DNA of 55,299 nucleotides from positions 1-55,299 of IMG/VR virus record IMGVR_UViG_3300027822_000016; one strand, written 5' to 3'. The number at the start of each line of letters is the position of its first letter. Position 1 is the stretch's first letter. The notes under the pieces are model-generated. The model saw nothing but the letters and a program-made list of their open reading frames with translations, was not told the origin of the DNA and did not search any database. Origin of the DNA: a virus. Its lineage: Duplodnaviria; Caudoviricetes. Shown one piece after another: positions 1,993 to 49,254 of the stretch. Position numbers and translations under genes: made by a program.

Positions 1993-3557
1993 TTCATTCC
2001 CCCGAATCCCCCGCGAAGGAGTTCATCGCGCACGACAGCGACCAGTTCTCTTTCCGAGATGACGCTTCCGGATACGTTCACGACTACCGATGTCCCTGCG
2101 CCTTGTTGTCCACGCATCATTCTTTCGGTGTCCGGGCCAGAGACAACTCTCCGGCCTGCGCCTTGGATAATTTCTCTTCCGCGTTCTCCGACAGTTGACA
2201 TTCCCGATCCGGTGATGCCTCCATGTTGAAAACCGAGGATGTTTCGTACAGCTCCAACACCAGGTATTTTACTGAGCGCATTCACGAGAGAACGTAACTG
2301 TTTTTTCATGAAATTGATAGAACTCACAACAGTATTCTTGATTTTTCCGAATATGTTGCTCACAATGTTGAAAAGTCCGCTAAAAACGGATTGCCCCACG
2401 GAAATGATGGTGCGTAAAACGGACAGTACGACATCTATTGACACTGACACCACTGAAGCAATCGCCCCGAATACCGCTTGTGCCACGGCCAGAAGGCCAT
2501 TGAAAATCGGTGTGCCGACGAAAAGGAGCGCCCGGAATGCCGCGGTTGCCACTGTGGTGATGATTTTGAAGACGATCCGTAGGTAGGCGAGATAGACTTT
2601 TGCGACGACCGAGAGAGCTGCGAACACTGGTTTCGCCACGGCTTTTATAACGTTAAACGACACTGTTGCCAGGGTGGAGATCGCTTTGAACGTGACTCGC
2701 ATGGCGGCGGAGAAGCTGTCGGCGAGGACAGACATTGCAAAAAAGGATGCTTTCGCGATGACGCTAATACCACGAAAAACTTGTACGCCTGTCCGGTAGA
2801 CCACTCCGAGTAGGTATCCCACCAAGTTGAGTGCCACTTTCGCGGTGAACGCCACTGCCTGGAAGGCCGGTTTGGCAACTGCGACAATCCCACCGAATAC
2901 CGTTTTCACCACGGTGAGAATCCCGGAAAACGCGGCTTTTATCGCGTCAAATGCTGCGACAGCTGCGTCTTTTACAAACGTGAAGCTTTTTTCCAGAAGT
3001 GGGCCAACGGGGGCGAAGAAGTCTGCTATTTTCCTGACGGCATCTTTGACAGCATCAGTGACACTTTTCCACACACTGAGCGCGACTTCTCGTACTGTAT
3101 CCCAGTTTTTTACAAGGAGTACGACGACCGCGATCACTGCAAGAACGGCGAGGATGAGTGGACCCATCGAAATTGCCCATGCAGCAGCGTTTTTTATCCA
3201 GGCGACAGAGTTTGCGACGATCACTTTCGTAAAATTTGCTATCGTCGGGACGATAAAATTTGCTATTCCCGATGCGAGGTCTCCGAGACCGGTGAGATAA
3301 TCGACTGGTCCTTCTGCGGTGGAGAGGTCTTCGAGGCCGGTGAAAACGTCGCGTAATCCCAGGATACGTTGTTCTGTGCCGTCTGCCGCGTCTGTCGCTT
3401 TGTCGAATCCTTCGTCGCTTGTTCGTCTGAGTGCTCTGGTTGCATTGTCTGATGCGCCGACGAGTCCGCCTAGACTTTTTTCGGCGTTGTTGAATGCTGG
3501 TGCGGAATCGTCTCTGCCGGTGATGACAATTTCTATTGCGTCCGATCCAGCGGCCAT
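1989..3557 (-). CDS. Tape measure protein
   Basis: 522 aa; N-terminal IVITGRDDSAPAF; hydrophobic segment followed by periodic Ala/Val/Phe amphipathic repeats; C-terminal GERGRE; follows the chaperone pair. Confidence 0.88.
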   Translation of the reverse strand: MAAGSDAIEIVITGRDDSAPAFNNAEKSLGGLVGASDNATRALRRTSDEGFDKATDAADGTEQRILGLRDVFTGLEDLSTAEGPVDYLTGLGDLASGIANFIVPTIANFTKVIVANSVAWIKNAAAWAISMGPLILAVLAVIAVVVLLVKNWDTVREVALSVWKSVTDAVKDAVRKIADFFAPVGPLLEKSFTFVKDAAVAAFDAIKAAFSGILTVVKTVFGGIVAVAKPAFQAVAFTAKVALNLVGYLLGVVYRTGVQVFRGISVIAKASFFAMSVLADSFSAAMRVTFKAISTLATVSFNVIKAVAKPVFAALSVVAKVYLAYLRIVFKIITTVATAAFRALLFVGTPIFNGLLAVAQAVFGAIASVVSVSIDVVLSVLRTIISVGQSVFSGLFNIVSNIFGKIKNTVVSSINFMKKQLRSLVNALSKIPGVGAVRNILGFQHGGITGSGMSTVGERGREIIQGAGRRVVSGPDTERMMRGQQGAGTSVVVNVSGSVISERELVAVVRDELLRGGFGGMN

Positions 3558-3805: not shown

Positions 3806-4158
3806 GTGGAGATTTGTGCCACCTCTTCCATCCACGTATTGATAATTTTGATGACGCTTGCAAGTCCGAGGTAGTCAAGACCTTCGGTGTTCGCTGGGAC
3901 TGGAATATTGTTTTCGTCGACAATATTCCAGCTGATGAGGGATCTTCCAAAAAAATCGAATACTTTTAGGGCGTTTTCGGTATTCACGCCCACTTGTTCG
4001 CTGCTGATTGCACCTTGAATCCGCATGAGTGAGCGTAACTCGCCAATGGTGAACTCATGTACAGTGATTTCCAGTCCCAGCAGATCATCGTTCGGGTCCG
4101 CAAAAACTATCTTGTACGAACTCTTTTTAGGGCTGAATCCGCTACTTGTTACGACCAC
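3727..4158 (-). CDS. Tail assembly chaperone (G-like)
   Basis: 143 aa between tail tube and tape measure genes; ISWNIVDE motif; in-frame slippery heptamer. Confidence 0.75.
   Translation of the reverse strand: MVVTSSGFSPKKSSYKIVFADPNDDLLGLEITVHEFTIGELRSLMRIQGAISSEQVGVNTENALKVFDFFGRSLISWNIVDENNIPVPANTEGLDYLGLASVIKIINTWMEEVAQISTPLEHRSGSGMPVEISQEILKTHLTS
3799..3805 (-). other. Programmed -1 frameshift slippery site CCCTTTA
   Basis: X XXY YYZ heptamer in the correct phase; the -1 frame is the 3557..3835 ORF. Confidence 0.75.
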
Positions 4159-23872: not shown

Positions 23873-24277
23873 CTACTGAACCATGTCGGAAACGATTTCG
23901 TCCATCAGTTTCTTATGTTCATTGGCCAATTCGGCGTAGTCTTTCTCCAAGCCGGTATAAAGACTTTGTAGGTCCTTTAATTTATCCTCCAACTTGACAA
24001 TTGTGTCGGCTTCTGAATCTGCTCCTCCGTACGGAAAATCGCCTTTCAGCTCATTACTTTCATCTTCAAGCCCTCGTATTTCGTGCTTCAGTTCGCTGTT
24101 TTCGGCGATAAAACCACCAATTTCGGCTTTTAGGTCGTCGTTTTCACTCCTTAACACTTCATTTTCGTACTTCAAGTCCTTGTTTTCGGCGGTCATTGAG
24201 CGGATCTTGGCCTTCATGCCTCGTGCTCTCGTGACGGGATCGTTGCTGTCGTATTCTGCGTCCCAGTACTCTGTCAT
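23873..24277 (-). CDS. Acidic coiled-coil protein
   Basis: Heptads ENKDLKY-ENEVLRS-ENDDLKA; first gene of a cassette. Confidence 0.8.
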   Translation of the reverse strand: MTEYWDAEYDSNDPVTRARGMKAKIRSMTAENKDLKYENEVLRSENDDLKAEIGGFIAENSELKHEIRGLEDESNELKGDFPYGGADSEADTIVKLEDKLKDLQSLYTGLEKDYAELANEHKKLMDEIVSDMVQ

Positions 24278-24397
24278 TGTGTGTCCTTCTCTCTTTTTGC
24301 TTATGGGTGTATTTTATCTGGTCAAACACTACTTGTCAACAAACGAGGATAATACGGCAAATAAAAAAGGAGACCCACTGGGGGTCTCCAAATACGT

Positions 24398-43111: not shown

Positions 43112-43534
43112 TTAGCTCCCATCATTAATATTTTTCATACCTATTAAATCATTAATTATATGCCTTGCACAAGGCCAATTTTCCCGGCGCATGCTGGGAA
43201 TTCTCTCGCCAGTGAGCAGGTAGAATACATCTGGAGTGCGCCGACCTTTCACCACATCGCCTTGTTGCGCCACTATGGGGTAGACCGGTAGCCCGTACTC
43301 CTTCCACATGACATTTGTGACAATGTTATAAAAACTATTCCATTCCCCAGCGGATATCGATTTCGCCCCAGTCTTGCACTGCACAAGCAAAATTTGTCGA
43401 TGCCCCATTGCAATAACATCTGCGCCCATAGCACTTTTGCTCCCGGCAAAACGTGCCGCCACATACCCCACGTCCGACAAGGACGCAACGACGACACGCT
43501 CAAAAGCCGCACCTCTCTGATAATTCGTCATCAC
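43112..43534 (-). CDS. Holliday junction resolvase (Hjc-like PD-(D/E)XK)
   Basis: YQRGAAFER...AGSK...ADVIA...LVQCK. Confidence 0.82.
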   Translation of the reverse strand: MMTNYQRGAAFERVVVASLSDVGYVAARFAGSKSAMGADVIAMGHRQILLVQCKTGAKSISAGEWNSFYNIVTNVMWKEYGLPVYPIVAQQGDVVKGRRTPDVFYLLTGERIPSMRRENWPCARHIINDLIGMKNINDGS

Positions 43535-44583
43535 ACAACCTCCTTCGCCTTCATCTCGGCCTTGACTTGTTTTCTCCGATCCTTGAACCCTTCATGTCTG
43601 CAGATGGATGATGGGGATACGCCAATCTCCTCTGCAATGATGTTGTCCATTTTCATGCGTCCTTCATCGTCGAACCAGTTCCCGGATTGCACACCAGCGT
43701 CATCCAGCCAATCCTCAATTGCAGTACGTGCTGTGCCTCGTTTGATCGGGATCACACCCGCCGCAATTTCACGGGCTGATTGCAATGCAATTTCATTTTC
43801 ACGATCCAACCCCGCTGCAATTTCACGAGCTGATTGCAATGCAATTTCACTCCTTGGATTCTGTGCAATTTCATGCGCTGCCTCCTCTGCAATTTCATAC
43901 GCTGATTTCACTGCAATTTCATGCGATGATTTCACTGCAATTTCACTCCTCGGATTCTGTGCAATTTCAGGCTGCACCACAATTTCAGACTTCATCGCCT
44001 CAACATGACTGCGATTCACCACAGCAAAAAGCCTCGTCAACCGCAGCACGCCCTCGATTAAGAGGACAAATACTGTCGATGGCAGAGCTTCAAAAATCGC
44101 ATACCCCGCGTGCCCCACTACAAATAGGGCATACGACGCATTGAGTACGAGCGTGGAGATACCAACACCAAGCATCGCCCAGCGAAAAAGTTGCATCGCA
44201 CTGGCATGCTCCCTCTGCAGCTCTTTCTCGTCATCACCTGGCGAGAGCAGCACAAAAATCAAATTCACACTAACCAGAAAGAGCAAAAACGTATCTAGCA
44301 TTGGTGCTACCAACACTGACAAATTGTCAGGGACACCCAGATAGGCTCCCAATCCCTGGATATTTCGGAACGAAAAAAGATACGCGCACCAAATCAATGC
44401 CCCCGTTGTTGCAAACGATGTGAGAAACATCAATCCCAACACATCGTTACGGACATTGAAAATTCTGTTTTTCAATGTCCGTAACGAATGCACAAAACGT
44501 TGCTTCCGAGCGGCACGAGCGCTCTCACGCACCATTTTCCTCTCCCGTTTCTCCCTCATTTTCACCTGATATTTCGTCTCCAT
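43531..44583 (-). CDS. DUF2637/Spd-like membrane protein with EIA repeats and C-terminal HTH-like motif
   Basis: Four TM segments with SF..I..L, PMLD, LN and LP...E pattern; IAEEIGVSPSSICR at the C-terminus. Confidence 0.65.
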   Translation of the reverse strand: METKYQVKMREKRERKMVRESARAARKQRFVHSLRTLKNRIFNVRNDVLGLMFLTSFATTGALIWCAYLFSFRNIQGLGAYLGVPDNLSVLVAPMLDTFLLFLVSVNLIFVLLSPGDDEKELQREHASAMQLFRWAMLGVGISTLVLNASYALFVVGHAGYAIFEALPSTVFVLLIEGVLRLTRLFAVVNRSHVEAMKSEIVVQPEIAQNPRSEIAVKSSHEIAVKSAYEIAEEAAHEIAQNPRSEIALQSAREIAAGLDRENEIALQSAREIAAGVIPIKRGTARTAIEDWLDDAGVQSGNWFDDEGRMKMDNIIAEEIGVSPSSICRHEGFKDRRKQVKAEMKAKEVV

Positions 44584-44678
44584 TTTCTTCTCCTCTCCCC
44601 CTAAGAACCCCGAAGGGGTTGCCGTCGATTTTTATGCGGTCTGACCTGCACTTTTCAATTTTTGATTCCGGACAGTTC

Positions 44679-45716
44679 CTAGTCATTTCCTGGTCGGTTT
44701 CCCACTCGATCTCCCGTTCGGTTTCCCACCCGGTTTCCCACTCGATTTCCCGTTGGGTTTCCACCGTTCTCAATGCTCCTGCGCTTTGGCGGAGCCAAGG
44801 AGAAGAGGGTCATCGGTCGGTCCTTGGCAGCATGGCTTCCCAGTTTTCCCCATATTGCGGAGAGGGCGCCATGCTCGTAGTCGGGTGTGAAGAATGCCTT
44901 TTTTGTAGCGACGCCGACGTTAAAACCTGGGGGCATTTCGGTGTTTCTGTGGGTTTCCCAGATTGCTTTTGCGCATTCTTTGCCGCCGAATCCACGCCGG
45001 TCGTCTTCTGTAATGATGAGTAGGCGGGGGAATTCTCCTCCGGGGAAGCGTTCTCGCCATGCGTCTGGGGTGTTGTACAAATGCTTATATTTTTGCACTT
45101 TTTCTGCTAGTTTGCTTACTCCTTGTGTGCCTCTGTCCAGCTCAATGATGAGTGGCACTACTGTTATCTGCCCGTTGCGCACCGCGATGTAGTGCAGGAT
45201 CATGTCGGAGATCAGCAGTTGCTCATCACCTCGTTTTGTTTTGCGGTACTTGAACGCAATTTCGTGCTCCCATGCGTATGGGTCGCACTGGTCGCCCATT
45301 GTTAGTGCGATTTCGCAGAATCGCAGTCCGACCCGGTTGGCGAGGAGCGGATGGTAGGGCCATATTCTCCCTGTTGGGTTGTGCAGCCATCCACGGTCAA
45401 GCTTTGGATTCCCTTGGCATACTGCGTCGATTCCTTTTTCCGTCGCATGCCAGCAGACCCGATTTTTCTTGCCGACCTCGCCAGTGCGTTTGTTGATGTA
45501 CTCACCATTTTTCAGTGTTGTCAAGTGGTCGTTAAATTTACTCAGGGGTGATAAGCCCAGGTAGAAATGCATTTTTTGTAGTGTGCTGGAGGTGATGTAT
45601 CTGTGTTGGGTAAGTAACGTCACCGTGGTGGCTTGCCGCTCGGAAAACACAGATGCGCCACTTTCCCCCCCTTTCTCTGGTGGTGTCCCTCGCGGTTTTG
45701 TCTCTGTCGCTCGCAT
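44679..45716 (-). CDS. Replication-relaxation family protein (putative relaxase)
   Basis: L.QHRYITS winged-helix start, W.AT.KG, HPLLAN, WEHE, SD, IELDRGT, KVQKY, FPRLLII. Confidence 0.8.
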   Translation of the reverse strand: MRATETKPRGTPPEKGGESGASVFSERQATTVTLLTQHRYITSSTLQKMHFYLGLSPLSKFNDHLTTLKNGEYINKRTGEVGKKNRVCWHATEKGIDAVCQGNPKLDRGWLHNPTGRIWPYHPLLANRVGLRFCEIALTMGDQCDPYAWEHEIAFKYRKTKRGDEQLLISDMILHYIAVRNGQITVVPLIIELDRGTQGVSKLAEKVQKYKHLYNTPDAWRERFPGGEFPRLLIITEDDRRGFGGKECAKAIWETHRNTEMPPGFNVGVATKKAFFTPDYEHGALSAIWGKLGSHAAKDRPMTLFSLAPPKRRSIENGGNPTGNRVGNRVGNRTGDRVGNRPGND

Positions 45717-45746
45717 ACTTTGGCCCCATTTCGTGAAATTTCACAG

Positions 45747-45825
45747 GAAATTGCACATCCGTCATTGTCGTTACTCCGTCAACACATTTATTACGTAGTA
45801 TAGTTGTGCAATTTCATCCACGCCA
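45747..45825 (-). promoter_or_regulatory. Inverted-repeat-flanked core with promoter (candidate oriT/operator)
   Basis: GAAATTGCACA 45747-45757 and TGTGCAATTTC 45805-45815; TGGCGT-N17-TATACT at 45797-45825. Confidence 0.5.
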
Positions 45826-45840
45826 TCTAGAATTTTTGAC

Positions 45841-46402
45841 CGTGAAATTTCACGAGCTAATTTCATGAGCAATTTCACGAGCCAATTTCATGAGCAATTT
45901 CACGAGCCAATTTCATGAGCAATTTCACGAGCTGATTTCACAAGGCAATTTCACGAGCTGATTTCATGAGTAATTTCACGAGCTGATTTCACAAGACGAT
46001 TTCATGAGCAATTTCACAAGGCAATTTCACAGGCAATTTCACAAGGCAATTTCACAGGCAATTTCACAGGCAATTTCACGAGCAATTTCACTAGCCAATT
46101 TCACAAGGCAATTTCACGAGCTGATTTCATGAGCAATTTCACGAGCTGATTTCACAAGGCAATTTCATGAGCAATTTCACGAGCAATTTCATGAGCAATT
46201 TCACGAGCAATTTCATGAGCAATTTCACAAGACGATTTCATGAGCAATTTCACGAGCAATTTCACAGGCAATTTCACTAGCCAATTTCATGAGCAATTTC
46301 ACTAGCCAATTTCATGAGCAATTTCACTAGCCAATTTCATGAGCAATTTCATGAGCAATTTCATGAGCAATTTCACTAGGCAATTTCATGAGCAAATTTC
46401 AC
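45841..46402. repeat. Tandem array of about 45 (A/G)ATTTCA-core repeats, 12-13 bp period
   Basis: Counted by eye; units include GCAATTTCATGA, GCAATTTCACGA, GCTGATTTCACAA, CCAATTTCA. Confidence 0.97.
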
Positions 46403-49254
46403 AACATATAAAAGGGGAGGCCGTCCCCGCCCGCAATTGTCTCTTCCTCGCTACCATCTGCAACTGCACAATCCATCGTGGAATCTTCCACTACAACAGC
46501 ACTGTCATCTGCAATTTCATCTGCGATTTCATCTGCGATTTCATCTGCAATTTCATCCAAATCAAAATCGATGATCCGTTGCACAAGAGTTTTTTGGTGT
46601 CGTGCAACTGTCTCAAATGACACGCCTTCGTCATCCCGTAATACCGGATAAGGCAATTCTCCCGGTTCTCCGAGTATTGCTTTTGCGTCCAGTCCATGCA
46701 GTAGGTGGTGCTGTAGTGGATTCGCCTGGTGGGGCGAACGTGCAACTGCACACATCTGATACTGCAACCCAGTGAGTGGTATGTGGTCGGGGACGAGCAA
46801 TTTTCTCCGAAATTTATCTGCGTCATCCTGCGTGTTGAATGCGACCTGCAGCAAACTTGCATTCGCCAGTACAACGTCTTCTATTCCATAGGGGAGTTGC
46901 CCAAAATTTTGTGCAGCGAAAATGAGGGGCATATTGCTCTTGCGCCCTTGGGTCAGAAGGAGATTTATGGAGTCTCGGAATGCCCCGATAAATGAAGGTG
47001 CCTCATCCATAATAATGAGATGTGGTGGGTGTTCTCTGGCGTCCGCCATGTCAGCCCGGCCGTACACTGATTGCCGCAGGTACGCTGCAATAAATGCGCC
47101 GAAAATGTTTCCAACATGCTGGTCTTTTCCCGTGCGAAGTTGAATGAGCGTGATTTTCCCGCGTCCGACATCCATTTGCGGGGACCATCGAGTTTTTGAC
47201 GATCCCAACATGGTGTACATCGTGTCGTCTACTTTTGCGCTGTCGATGATCTCAAGCGGACCTTCGACAGAACTCCGCTGCACCCTTTCCCAATCTCCTG
47301 CGATGTTTTCCGGCAGAAGAGAGACGATTTTCTCCTGGAATGCAATTGATTTTGGGTCTTCTCGGACCATCGTGGCGAGTTGGAATACTGTGGTTTGGAT
47401 GTCTTCCGGCAAGCGGCTGTTTGCCACTACCAGTGAGGTGATGAGTACTTTGAGTACTCGCCTGATTTTAGGGGCATTGTCCGTCCTCCACTCACCGGCA
47501 GAACAAAGCGCACTGAACGCACCACTCGCGATGTTATCCACCTGTCCCCTTTTTGCACCCTTCGGCACGAATAGAGGATTCATCGGCTTCTGTAACGACC
47601 CCTCCTCTTTATTGTCCATGTCAATAACATGGAGTCGTTCGCGCATGTGCGCGCGTGCATCTGGGCCATCACAATCCTGGAGGTAGTAGTTCAGAAGTTT
47701 CGCTGTTTGTGCATCAGGCACGATAATTGTTGCGGATGCGTCCTCCCGAGAAGAGAGATACGTCACAACAGCGGACACAAGCGCACTTGTTTTCCCCCCA
47801 CCAGAAGGGGCCACAAGCATCCAAGCAACAAAATCCTGCAAATCCGCAGCTTTTCTCTGCCCATCAATCTCCCCAATAGGGAGAGCGTACCGGGGATTTT
47901 CACTGTCCCAATCCGGTAGGGAATTTTCGTCTCTCCCCTGGCCTGCAATTTCAGTGAGCGTGACCTTATTTATAGGGGGCAAAAAGAGCGGGGTGAGCGG
48001 TCCGATTGCCATTGTCCACGCGCGTTGTTTGTCGATTTTCGCTGTCTTCATACTGGTGTCGAATCGTCGAGCAGCGGTGGCCCCGGATGAGTGGCTACGT
48101 TCTTGGAGGATGTTTTGTCCGGAATCCAACGCCAGTCGAAGAGCGGCGCTGATGTTTGTGGCGATTTGTTGTGCGCGTGTTTCGGTTGCCGCCACAGAAG
48201 CGATACTTATGTCGCATACTCCTATGGGGTCGGTATTTGTGAGCTGTGCGCCTGCATCGCGGGCGGCTTTGCGAAATTTTTCTGCGTCTCCCTGGTCGAC
48301 TGGCCCAACATCCACTACGACCCACACAGCGTCGGTGTCGGAAAAGTTTTTCGCCGCTTTCTCAATCTGGACGTGTGGGTCTTGTATGGTGATGGATTCC
48401 AGTGCGCCAACGAAACTGTTGCTACGGCGTTGTGGATGGAAACTCGCCCGTGCGACGCCTACGTTTGCGTTTTTGTGTGGCCAGTCTTCGAGGACTCTCC
48501 CTGATTCTCGTCGTACCTGTATCCCTTTTGGCATTTGTGCGGCAAAAACTTCTTCCATGTCGCTTGTCACCTGGACATAAATAGAAAGTGCGTCTCTCCT
48601 TACCTGCGTGATCCCACGTACGACAGTATTCGTTTCCCCTGCTCGTAGTACCGCCAATCCCAAAACTTTGCTCGCCTCTTCCAGTGGAAGGACGTCAAAG
48701 TCGCTTTCCGGGAGGAGTTGTAAAGTGACGATTTCTTCTTTCGGATTTTTCCCTCGCCAAAACATGGCCACTGCGTCCCTCAGGTCAAATTCTTTCCCGC
48801 TCCGTACACGAGTCAATAACACCGCTATGGAGTACACAACGAGCAAAAAAATGGTCAGGATGATACAGACTGCGCCCCAGAAGAGTATGAGAAAAAGAGT
48901 TCGGTGCAGTGTCCATGCGATCATAAAAAAGACCAGTGCGTAAAACCCGCACACCCACAACATGGCCAAAAGAGAATTCAAACCGGAAGCCAAAAGCGTC
49001 TGCAAAAGAAACAGTCCGTAGACGAACGATGCGATCGTCGACGCCCACGTCACCGACCAGCGCACACTCGTGCCGGATGAGAGCATTGCCAGGAAAATGG
49101 GCACCCAAATAGAAATGGGCACATAGAGCCATACCTTTATAGGCACACTAGGTACAACCACTCGCTCATTACCATCTCCATCATTTGACAAAGATCGCAG
49201 CAAGCGAATGTTTGCAACGTTTTCGAGTAGTTCTTTAAGATCGAGGAGAGCCAT
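46399..49254 (-). CDS. VirD4/TraG/TrwB-like type IV coupling ATPase with N-terminal TM segments
   Basis: Walker A APSGGGKT, MNPL, Walker B IIMDEAP, GRKSN...FAAQNFGQL...VLAN; three to four N-terminal TM helices. Confidence 0.82.
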   Translation of the reverse strand: MALLDLKELLENVANIRLLRSLSNDGDGNERVVVPSVPIKVWLYVPISIWVPIFLAMLSSGTSVRWSVTWASTIASFVYGLFLLQTLLASGLNSLLAMLWVCGFYALVFFMIAWTLHRTLFLILFWGAVCIILTIFLLVVYSIAVLLTRVRSGKEFDLRDAVAMFWRGKNPKEEIVTLQLLPESDFDVLPLEEASKVLGLAVLRAGETNTVVRGITQVRRDALSIYVQVTSDMEEVFAAQMPKGIQVRRESGRVLEDWPHKNANVGVARASFHPQRRSNSFVGALESITIQDPHVQIEKAAKNFSDTDAVWVVVDVGPVDQGDAEKFRKAARDAGAQLTNTDPIGVCDISIASVAATETRAQQIATNISAALRLALDSGQNILQERSHSSGATAARRFDTSMKTAKIDKQRAWTMAIGPLTPLFLPPINKVTLTEIAGQGRDENSLPDWDSENPRYALPIGEIDGQRKAADLQDFVAWMLVAPSGGGKTSALVSAVVTYLSSREDASATIIVPDAQTAKLLNYYLQDCDGPDARAHMRERLHVIDMDNKEEGSLQKPMNPLFVPKGAKRGQVDNIASGAFSALCSAGEWRTDNAPKIRRVLKVLITSLVVANSRLPEDIQTTVFQLATMVREDPKSIAFQEKIVSLLPENIAGDWERVQRSSVEGPLEIIDSAKVDDTMYTMLGSSKTRWSPQMDVGRGKITLIQLRTGKDQHVGNIFGAFIAAYLRQSVYGRADMADAREHPPHLIIMDEAPSFIGAFRDSINLLLTQGRKSNMPLIFAAQNFGQLPYGIEDVVLANASLLQVAFNTQDDADKFRRKLLVPDHIPLTGLQYQMCAVARSPHQANPLQHHLLHGLDAKAILGEPGELPYPVLRDDEGVSFETVARHQKTLVQRIIDFDLDEIADEIADEIADEIADDSAVVVEDSTMDCAVADGSEEETIAGGDGLPFYML

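Follow-up and report, generated by a model that had tools for sequence, protein, structure and literature searches.

The replication origin of phage lambda lies inside gene O and is bound by the product of that gene, as described in PMC5043065. In phage SPP1, gp38 is reported to bind direct repeats in its own gene 38 (oriL) as well as a second, intergenic set (oriR) (PMC6316719). The clt locus of Streptomyces is described as a set of 8-bp direct repeats that mark, in cis, the DNA to be moved and that are read by the FtsK-like protein TraB (PMC4447253). TraX of the Enterococcus plasmid pAD1, a relaxase of the PD-(D/E)XK type with an N-terminal winged helix, is reported to bind five direct repeats located 70–120 bp from the nick (PMC12857230). 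The present analysis concerns a locus of a marine tailed phage (IMG/VR record IMGVR_UViG_3300027822_000016) in which the motif TGAAATTGC forms a non-coding array and is also written into the coding sequence of a putative membrane protein with a helix-turn-helix (HTH) and of a membrane-anchored ATPase. The closest working analogies are origin iterons within initiator genes and local sets of clt or origin-of-transfer (oriT) repeats. The window, 55,299 nt, is the entire viral record; its completeness is estimated at 83% and its GC content is 50%.

Since the window is the whole viral record, the count of TGAAATTGC is genome-wide: 41 exact copies were found, 41/41 on the minus strand, against a shuffle expectation of 0.87 (standard deviation 0.93; maximum 4 over 100 shuffles). 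Forty of the 41 are confined to 2.8 kb (43763–46555), with nine in the membrane-protein gene (43763–43969), 29 in the intergenic array and its edge (45808–46388) and two in the ATPase tail (46511 and 46547). The remaining copy is a stray that is in frame in the ATPase gene at 47945 (LTEIAG). An initial annotation had reported about 12 copies in the membrane-protein gene, with Glu-Ile always written GAA ATT, and four DEIA copies at the 3' end of the ATPase gene, all oriented like the non-coding array. This observation was confirmed. The core TGAAAT was counted 12 times in the membrane-protein gene, Glu-Ile is GAA ATT in 10/10 repeat units (in the HTH part, outside the repeats, it is GAG ATT), the four ATPase copies carry GAA ATT twice and GAA ATC twice, and every copy shares the orientation of the array.

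The interpretation that accompanied the observation was partly supported. The motif had been likened to KOPS, the word recognised by FtsK, and the likeness extends to a short oriented word that occurs with a hexameric DNA pump of the HerA-FtsK superfamily. However, KOPS are replicon-wide and show a strand bias, whereas the copies here are local, with one stray in the other ~50 kb, and in its details the comparison with FtsK and KOPS is wrong. The proposal that selection acts on the DNA motif rather than on the peptide fared better, as third positions are fixed, two reading frames are used, Glu-Ile codons are free elsewhere and the same signature is seen in two distant relatives. That the constraint on the motif appears to be one on DNA, and not on peptide, is the best supported conclusion from the sequence.

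The evidence lies in the linker of the membrane-HTH protein (350 aa; 43531–44583, minus strand), whose open reading frame (ORF) reads as four hydrophobic segments, a repeat linker and a C-terminal HTH. The linker, an in-frame repeat (43763–43987, minus strand), holds 12 TGAAAT copies, ten read as Glu-Ile and two as Val-Lys-Ser: nine are xxT GAA ATT GCx (EIA), one is TCT GAA ATT GTG (EIV) and two are GTG AAA TCA (VKS). Seven of the coding units are exactly 24 nt long. In these seven, identity is 100% in the T-GAA-ATT-GCA columns and at position 3 of the next codon, while positions 1 and 2 are only 29% and 33% identical in the preceding codon and 24% and 43% identical in the following one; the other 15 columns average 55%. 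The residue preceding Glu varies among S, P, H, Y, R and N, but the codon for it ends in T every time. Selection on the protein would give the reverse of this pattern, in which synonymous sites are fixed and adjacent non-synonymous sites vary, and the pattern argues for a constraint at the level of DNA. No codon bias is able to explain the frozen codons, because genome-wide GAA makes up 52%, ATT 36% and GCA 36% of their codon families. Elsewhere in the phage, outside the repeats, only 15/51 Glu-Ile pairs are written GAAATT, and 10/51 are preceded by T. The GC content at third codon positions (GC3) is 0.27–0.30 in the repeats of the window vs. 0.43–0.63 outside them. The second reading frame of the motif is an addition to the initial account.

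The non-coding array (45841–46401, minus strand) was read from the sequence as 45 consecutive units with an invariant core. TGAAAT is kept in 45/45 units, while the other 6–7 positions take 12 forms, so that 12 unit types are present; the spacing is 12 nt in 23 cases and 13 nt in 21, with an average of 12.4 nt. Its GC content is 35–41%, compared with that of the record given above. On the minus strand, the array is free of crossing ORFs of at least 50 aa, and the stop codon of the ATPase gene is the TGA of the first array unit. The coding units resemble array dimers, spacer included (TGAAATTGCATTG-CAATCAGCTCG in the gene vs. TGAAATTGCCTTG-TGAAATCAGCTCG in the array). A coding unit measures 24 nt and an array dimer 25–26 nt, and a loss of 2 nt restores the frame. 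The coding repeats and the array can therefore be regarded as the same DNA element, of which one copy is held in frame. The window is a metagenome short-read assembly, on which the copy number of the array rests. Both edges of the array are bridged by contigs from run X2 of another sample (45758–45888 and 46355–46534), and no contig among four other runs spans it, so the count of 45 units is an unverified assembly value. The idea that the period is set by the DNA helical repeat was dropped, as the spacings of 12.4 nt in the window and of 12 nt and 10.5 nt (average) in two relatives have no common value.

Those two relatives, L129 and L131 (L denotes DNA loci or contigs, and P protein sequences), show that in-frame arrays recur at a distance. 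Four metagenome contigs were found to carry ATPases 26–30% identical to that of the window. The order in L129 and L131 is ATPase, an abutting Replic_Relax gene with no array between them, a spacer of ~200 nt and a homologous membrane-HTH gene. The linker of the latter is again written in an in-frame array of 12-nt period, with a sequence unrelated to that of the window: CAAAATGGTGCT and similar units encode QNGAQKT in L129, and ATGTTCCGTCGG and similar units encode DVPSGVPVGSH in L131. In L131, 36/39 plus-strand copies of the core GTTCC are located in the array, and they use two frames (28 as GTT CC. and eight as G GTT CC). The codons chosen in the repeats differ from those chosen outside. In L131, GTT is used for 34/40 Val in the repeats vs. 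17/148 outside, and GGT for 14/15 vs. 22/109 Gly; in L129, CAA is used for 30/30 vs. 22/52 Gln, and GCT for 18/18 vs. 17/153 Ala. The GC3 of repeats vs. outside is 0.23–0.30 vs. 0.40–0.67 in L129 and 0.30–0.43 vs. 0.60–0.80 in L131.

Closer relatives P0151, P0153 and P0154 are known as proteins. P0151 is 97% identical to the membrane protein of the window and differs chiefly by swapped spacer types between EIA units, and P0153 and P0154 are 65–67% identical; all three share the recognition helix SSICRH and the EI(A/E) repeats. The residue after Glu-Ile in P0153 is Ala four times, Glu twice and Ser once, which means that 6/7 codons start with the G called for by the DNA word TGAAATTG. In L129 and L131, both the recognition helix and the motif are different. 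The co-variation of motif and HTH that the initial annotation had put forward as a check thus appears at a coarse level, with the SSICRH helix going together with EI(A/E).

From these observations, we infer that the C-terminal HTH of the membrane protein uses the arrays as its cis sites, which are overlaid on the sequence encoding the protein's own linker and accompanied by a second, non-coding copy; we give this reading an even chance of being right. (R)TGAAAT(T/C)G would be a cis-acting DNA site that is maintained by DNA-level selection in one-way arrays of ~12-nt period. One array, between the genes of the coupling-protein-like ATPase and the Replic_Relax protein, would be free from coding constraint and would have expanded in this lineage. 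The second would be overlaid on the linker of the membrane-HTH protein, which may tolerate nearly any peptide if the frame stays open. The C-terminal HTH of this protein is the most likely binder. The protein would coat 10–45 sites and tether the phage DNA at the membrane, by the hexameric ATPase and the nicking enzyme, and the purpose of the tethering might be either initiation of replication or DNA pumping. A bolder version, which we regard as speculative and rather improbable, would make the membrane protein dual-coded, with the DNA word as the primary message and the peptide as a passenger. The nascent protein would capture its own gene and the twin array, and together with the pump and the MOBC-type nickase would form a membrane-tethered loading site, either for replication at the membrane or for a capsid-free hand-over of DNA to a neighbouring cell.

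If the reading of the arrays as HTH sites is true, the locus would be a clean natural overlapping code, a translated cis-acting DNA array whose protein sequence is free to drift, and distant relatives would repeat the arrangement with motifs of unrelated sequence. It would also provide a function for the DUF2637-like membrane-HTH protein and for the pairing of a coupling-protein/FtsK-like ATPase with Replic_Relax. In tailed phages, this pairing has been reported but is not explained (PMC9658697).

The comparison with lambda and SPP1 is instructive on both sides. Both systems likewise have repeats inside the gene of a DNA-binding protein, which the membrane-HTH protein is predicted to be. A second non-coding set elsewhere in the genome is shared with SPP1, whose replication set is also described as including a Holliday-junction resolvase; an Hjc-like one follows the gene here. 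Unlike lambda and SPP1, which have a few longer iterons (19 bp in lambda), this phage has 10–45 short one-way units of 12–13 nt, and its putative binder, a membrane protein whose HTH is C-terminal, could not be related to O or gp38 (no Pfam match). It also differs in its neighbours, a coupling-protein-like ATPase and a MOBC-family nuclease. No match of the membrane-HTH protein to known origin-binding families was found in Pfam, PHROG and NCBIfam. Its match to DUF2637 reaches 12.1 bits (E 0.19), below the cut-off of 22.8; DUF2637 is matched by 4/7 family members at E up to 5, with P0155 as the best (21.6 bits, E 2.2e-4). A fold search with the whole model returned generic helical bundles alone, for residues 45–197, and barely probed the HTH part.

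Several points weigh against the arrays being sites for this HTH. The HTH itself is predicted from a modest model, in which residues 283–350 form a small helical domain (pLDDT 65–83) and the remainder is poor, and from weak HTH matches in the C-terminal parts of relatives (in L131, HTH_31 at 20 bits and HTH_23 at 19 bits, both below the Pfam cut-off). Half of the second-frame copies in the window have decayed (TTGCAATCA, CAGAATCC and GAGGAGGC), so not every copy is protected. Since stop-free repeats leave several frames open, an open frame alone is weak evidence. All cores of L129 (28/28) are in one frame, and the two-frame argument therefore applies to the window and L131, which are two of the three arrays. 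ATPase homologues were also found in 106 plasmid records of Streptomyces and Kitasatospora (PLSDB types: 88 non-mobilizable and 18 mobilizable). In two Streptomyces plasmids examined (among L134, L135 and L137–L140), the ATPase-relaxase pair is adjacent and lies beside conjugation-type genes, and strong DUF2637 genes are located 15–30 kb away. The 12-nt arrays are absent from the Streptomyces plasmid loci examined, both at the ATPase-relaxase pair and at the DUF2637 genes, which indicates that the wider family does not need them. Finally, the repeats of relatives contain higher-order units of 42–120 nt that are 87–97% identical, and recent tandem duplication also gives frozen codons. Unit types are swapped between the window and P0151, so the region turns over by recombination, and the array, which is 1.9 kb away, could through gene conversion hold the coding copies identical even if these have no function of their own.

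These last points lead to the alternative that survives best, neutral repeat dynamics, which is a serious possibility although we think it more doubtful than probable. The linker and the ATPase tail would then be spacers born of slippage, the array would be an escaped and expanded copy, and duplication and gene conversion would account for the identity. The spacer CAGCTCG, common to coding and array units, points to shared descent, and both the higher-order units and the shuffled unit types are what such dynamics would leave behind. However, unequal crossing-over should homogenise whole units, and here the motif columns alone are invariant. Repeat codons combine zero synonymous change with numerous non-synonymous changes, the opposite of what neutral decay would give; the core has stayed invariant in all of the non-coding units despite the 12 unit types, and a period of ~12 nt recurs in the same linker with three unrelated sequences. 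If slippage is nevertheless the true explanation, the locus would show how slippage and gene conversion can mimic DNA-level selection.

The ATPase tail also bears on the neutral alternative. The four in-frame 12-nt units GAT GAA AT(T/C) GCA (DEIA ×4; 46508–46555, minus strand) consist of two TGAAATTGC and two TGAAATCGC. At this position, a relative with an 80% identical ATPase has a single DAIAD (GAT GCA ATT GCA GAT), and the DEIA block is likewise missing from a variant in run X5. The block looks like a recent 12-nt expansion of the acidic tail and is the weakest part of the observation. Repeat expansion of the acidic tail is ordinary in coupling proteins. The X5 variant is a loose end at 46561; it diverges exactly at the DEIA block and carries GCAATTGC there, as does the 80% relative. 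The pattern TGAAATTG-4N-TGAAATTG was found in at least 116 stretches of viral contigs, and the loci that were fetched all had at most six motif copies. Two contigs with doubled matches, L029 (180–240) and L085 (5990–6045), are unrelated and AT-rich and show the 20-nt pattern as plain acidic repeats (EDEIED and SEID), so an isolated DEIA-type repeat is not special by itself.

When viral contigs were searched with the ATPase, membrane protein and relaxase of the window, the 80% identical sequence was the one relative found (L009/L126). The L126 contig ends 30 nt past the ATPase stop codon, and the downstream sequence starts with TGCAACCTGCAACCGCAATTTGCAAT, seemingly the start of a different repeat. 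The palindrome GCAATTGC occurs five times in the 24.3 kb of L126, including three copies within the final 350 nt of its ATPase gene (L126 10500–10850; G001 23950–24300), and once in the 55 kb of the window, which is chance level. There is a hint of a one-base difference in the motif of this relative and of a matching change in its coding copies, in a contig that contains no array. The 26-nt word at the end of the L126 contig matched the L126 contig alone. A HMMER scan of 1.84 billion representatives with the ATPase gave 157 matches at E up to 0.001 and four at E up to 1e-30, from which it follows that this ATPase is rare. A tblastn search of GenBank phages with the ATPase found none, nor were the relaxases of the window and L131 found in phages. 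Among genome contigs, there was one weak match, in a metagenome-assembled genome of Actinomycetota, with no array of this kind.

Another possibility is that the array belongs to the neighbouring relaxase. On the minus strand, the order of the locus is ATPase, non-coding array, inverted-repeat region, Replic_Relax, hairpin spacer, membrane-HTH protein and Hjc-like nuclease. The Replic_Relax protein (345 aa; 44679–45716, minus strand) is assigned by profile to PF13814 (44.0 bits vs. a cut-off of 25.3, residues 33–221) and also matches phrog_9381, "replication initiation by nicking". It is 29–31% identical to the proteins beside the ATPases of relatives. E152, D171, E192 and D194 are invariant in three aligned relaxase sequences and are candidate catalytic residues. 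PF13814 has been placed in the PD-(D/E)XK fold (PMC3424549), and the relaxase family listed as MobC/MOBC corresponds to it (PMC5357655).

In an enlarged MOBC-type oriT, the winged helix of the Replic_Relax protein would bind the array, the nick would fall in the adjacent inverted repeats, the ATPase would receive the DNA and the coding copies would be by-products. The gene order, with a coupling-protein-like ATPase, repeats and inverted repeats and a PF13814 gene, fits such an origin, as does the MOBC assignment of the family. A relaxase of TraX's family near short direct repeats is also what pAD1 is reported to have, where the repeats bound by TraX, through whose N-terminal winged HTH the parallel is drawn, lie away from nic (PMC12857230). 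We nevertheless consider an enlarged oriT unlikely, since the ATPase and relaxase genes of L129 and L131 abut with no array between them, and since conservation together with the relaxase is seen for another repeat, GGGAAAYCG, present in five to six copies ~110 nt from a conserved hairpin. Genes for a type IV secretion channel were not recognised either: VirB4, VirB6 and pilin families were absent from the scanned ORFs of the window, most of which have no match at all, in a record that is incomplete. The pAD1 gene for a coupling protein, the TraG-like TraW, is near the relaxase gene. Francia and Clewell (2002) reportedly placed the pAD1 origin, which has short repeats with a period of 11 bp, between traX and the TraG-like gene. 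Unlike pAD1 with its five repeats, the present locus has 45 repeats plus coding copies in a tailed phage setting, and its relaxase-linked conserved repeat is not TGAAATTGC.

GGGAAA(C/T)CG is present as five to six direct repeats of 12-nt period (44685–44765, minus strand) at the 3' end of the relaxase ORF, where the last ~30 residues (GNRVGNRV..., GNRVGNRVGNRTGDRVGNR) read through the repeat; the proteins of relatives do not have this tail. In L129 (3045–3105) and L131 (3700–3770), GGGAAAYCG is non-coding, has the opposite orientation and lies in the spacer between the relaxase and membrane-protein genes. The word is thus kept across relatives whose proteins are ~30% identical. By analogy, GGGAAAYCG is a better candidate for the relaxase site than the TGAAATTGC array, because it is conserved along with the relaxase and because TraX of pAD1 binds five direct repeats at some distance from the nick. 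If the relaxase uses GGGAAAYCG, the variable arrays would be left for the variable HTH of the membrane protein. That the word is translated in the window and non-coding in relatives also implies that translation of 12-nt DNA repeats can be incidental.

A hairpin, AACCCCTTCGGGGTT (44606–44620, minus strand), immediately precedes the ribosome-binding site of the membrane-protein gene and is conserved in L129 and L131. Its form is CCCC(C)TTCGGGG(G) (CCCCTTCGGGG, with a TTCG loop), and it lies ~100–110 nt beyond GGGAAAYCG (L129 ~3167–3185; L131 ~3827–3845). It is possibly a nick site, a terminator or a translational control element. The C arm of the hairpin could pair with a downstream G run.

The inverted-repeat region at the relaxase-side end of the array (45731–45855) may, judging from its sequence, be an operator, a nick region or an unwinding element. 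The palindrome GTGAAATTTCAC occurs in it twice (45735–45746 and 45843–45854), and the motif is present as an inverted pair (45747–45757 on the plus strand and 45805–45815 on the minus strand). A 14-nt sequence, TCGTGAAATTTCAC, is found in two exact copies 97 nt apart, each of which contains GTGAAATTTCAC, with the inverted motif pair in between. These copies flank an AT-rich stretch just upstream of the relaxase gene. A sigma-70 promoter scan of 45700–45860 found nothing.

The likeness to FtsK and TraB that the initial annotation had drawn finds no support in the ATPase (951 aa; 46399–49254, minus strand), which is predicted to be membrane-anchored and to have the fold of a type IV coupling protein (VirD4/TrwB-like) with an acidic C-terminal tail. 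The translation has long hydrophobic stretches at the N-terminus (residues ~40–150), consistent with a membrane anchor, and the motifs SGGGKTS (Walker A) and IIMDEA (Walker B); the Walker A G and K and the Walker B D-E are invariant or nearly so in 35 aligned sequences. An AlphaFold model of residues 440–900 (pLDDT 90.4, pTM 0.90) indicates the fold of coupling proteins, a RecA-like domain with an inserted all-alpha domain. In Foldseek, the best matches were Cagbeta (8dol; E 8.5e-11, TMq 0.63) and TrwB (1e9s; E 2.7e-9), followed by HerA with similar scores, and the DotL complex 6sz9 was also listed. The ATPase itself has no Pfam match above the cut-off, including TrwB_AAD_bind, T4SS-DNA_transf and TraG-D_C. 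FtsK_SpoIIIE (PF01580) gave no match at E up to 0.01, and no FtsK entry was among the Foldseek rows listed. Of 20 distant homologues scanned, four matched TrwB_AAD_bind (P0005, P0019, P0021 and P0028), and FtsK_SpoIIIE was matched once below the cut-off and once above it, beside stronger coupling-protein matches. No DNA-reading winged helix was found in the ATPase, where residues 900–951 are the acidic repeat-bearing tail, which has no domain match and was not modelled separately. Profiles of the ATPase and the relaxase gave nothing meaningful against PDB sequences. A C-terminal HTH (HTH_23, HTH_38 or sigma-70 region 4) is fused to the ATPase in the distant homologues P0010 and P0019, so DNA reading is built into the pump in part of the wider family.

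As in the reported clt/TraB system, local short direct repeats lie beside the gene of a membrane DNA pump, and a local clt-like or oriT-like array is a fair functional analogy. Nevertheless, the ATPase is predicted to have a coupling-protein fold and not that of TraB, the locus includes a nicking enzyme while the DNA moved by TraB is double-stranded and unprocessed, and the array is ~10 times larger than clt and is duplicated inside coding sequence.

Variable in-frame repeat linkers of conjugation proteins are exemplified by the QQP repeats of F-like TraD, and coupling proteins commonly dock through an acidic C-terminal tail (TraD-TraM of the F plasmid). The present locus resembles TraD-type repeats in having in-frame tandem repeats in a tail or linker, with a unit number that differs between close relatives. 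To our knowledge, no TraD-type linker has a non-coding twin array, and none has been reported in two frames or with fixed synonymous sites amid amino-acid change, all of which are found here. The weakest alternative, that EIA and DEIA are selected as helical or acidic docking peptides and that codon bias made their codons uniform, is very improbable: EI(A/E) repeats do persist in relatives 65–97% identical, and the repeat region is modelled as a helix at very low confidence (pLDDT 30–40), but the bias is insufficient, the invariant T sits in a codon whose amino acid varies among six residues, the motif is also present in a second frame and in the 45 non-coding units, and the linkers of L129 and L131 are of wholly different composition.

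The remaining features of the region are minor. An Rfam search over the array gave sub-threshold Gut-1 matches alone (21–23 bits vs. a gathering score of 50), which were taken as chance matches to repeats. A terminator-like hairpin, GGGGACGGCCTCCCC, followed by the T run TTTTATATGT (46414–46428, minus strand), lies inside the last codons of the ATPase gene and was identified by a consensus match alone. The phage genes of the window include those for a tail tape-measure protein, major head protein, portal and large terminase, and its replication genes encode a family A DNA polymerase, a primase-helicase and helicases. The Hjc/Mrr-like nuclease (140 aa; 43112–43534, minus strand; Pfam Hjc 27.3 bits and Mrr_cat 23.2 bits) is encoded by a gene that overlaps the 3' end of the membrane-protein gene.

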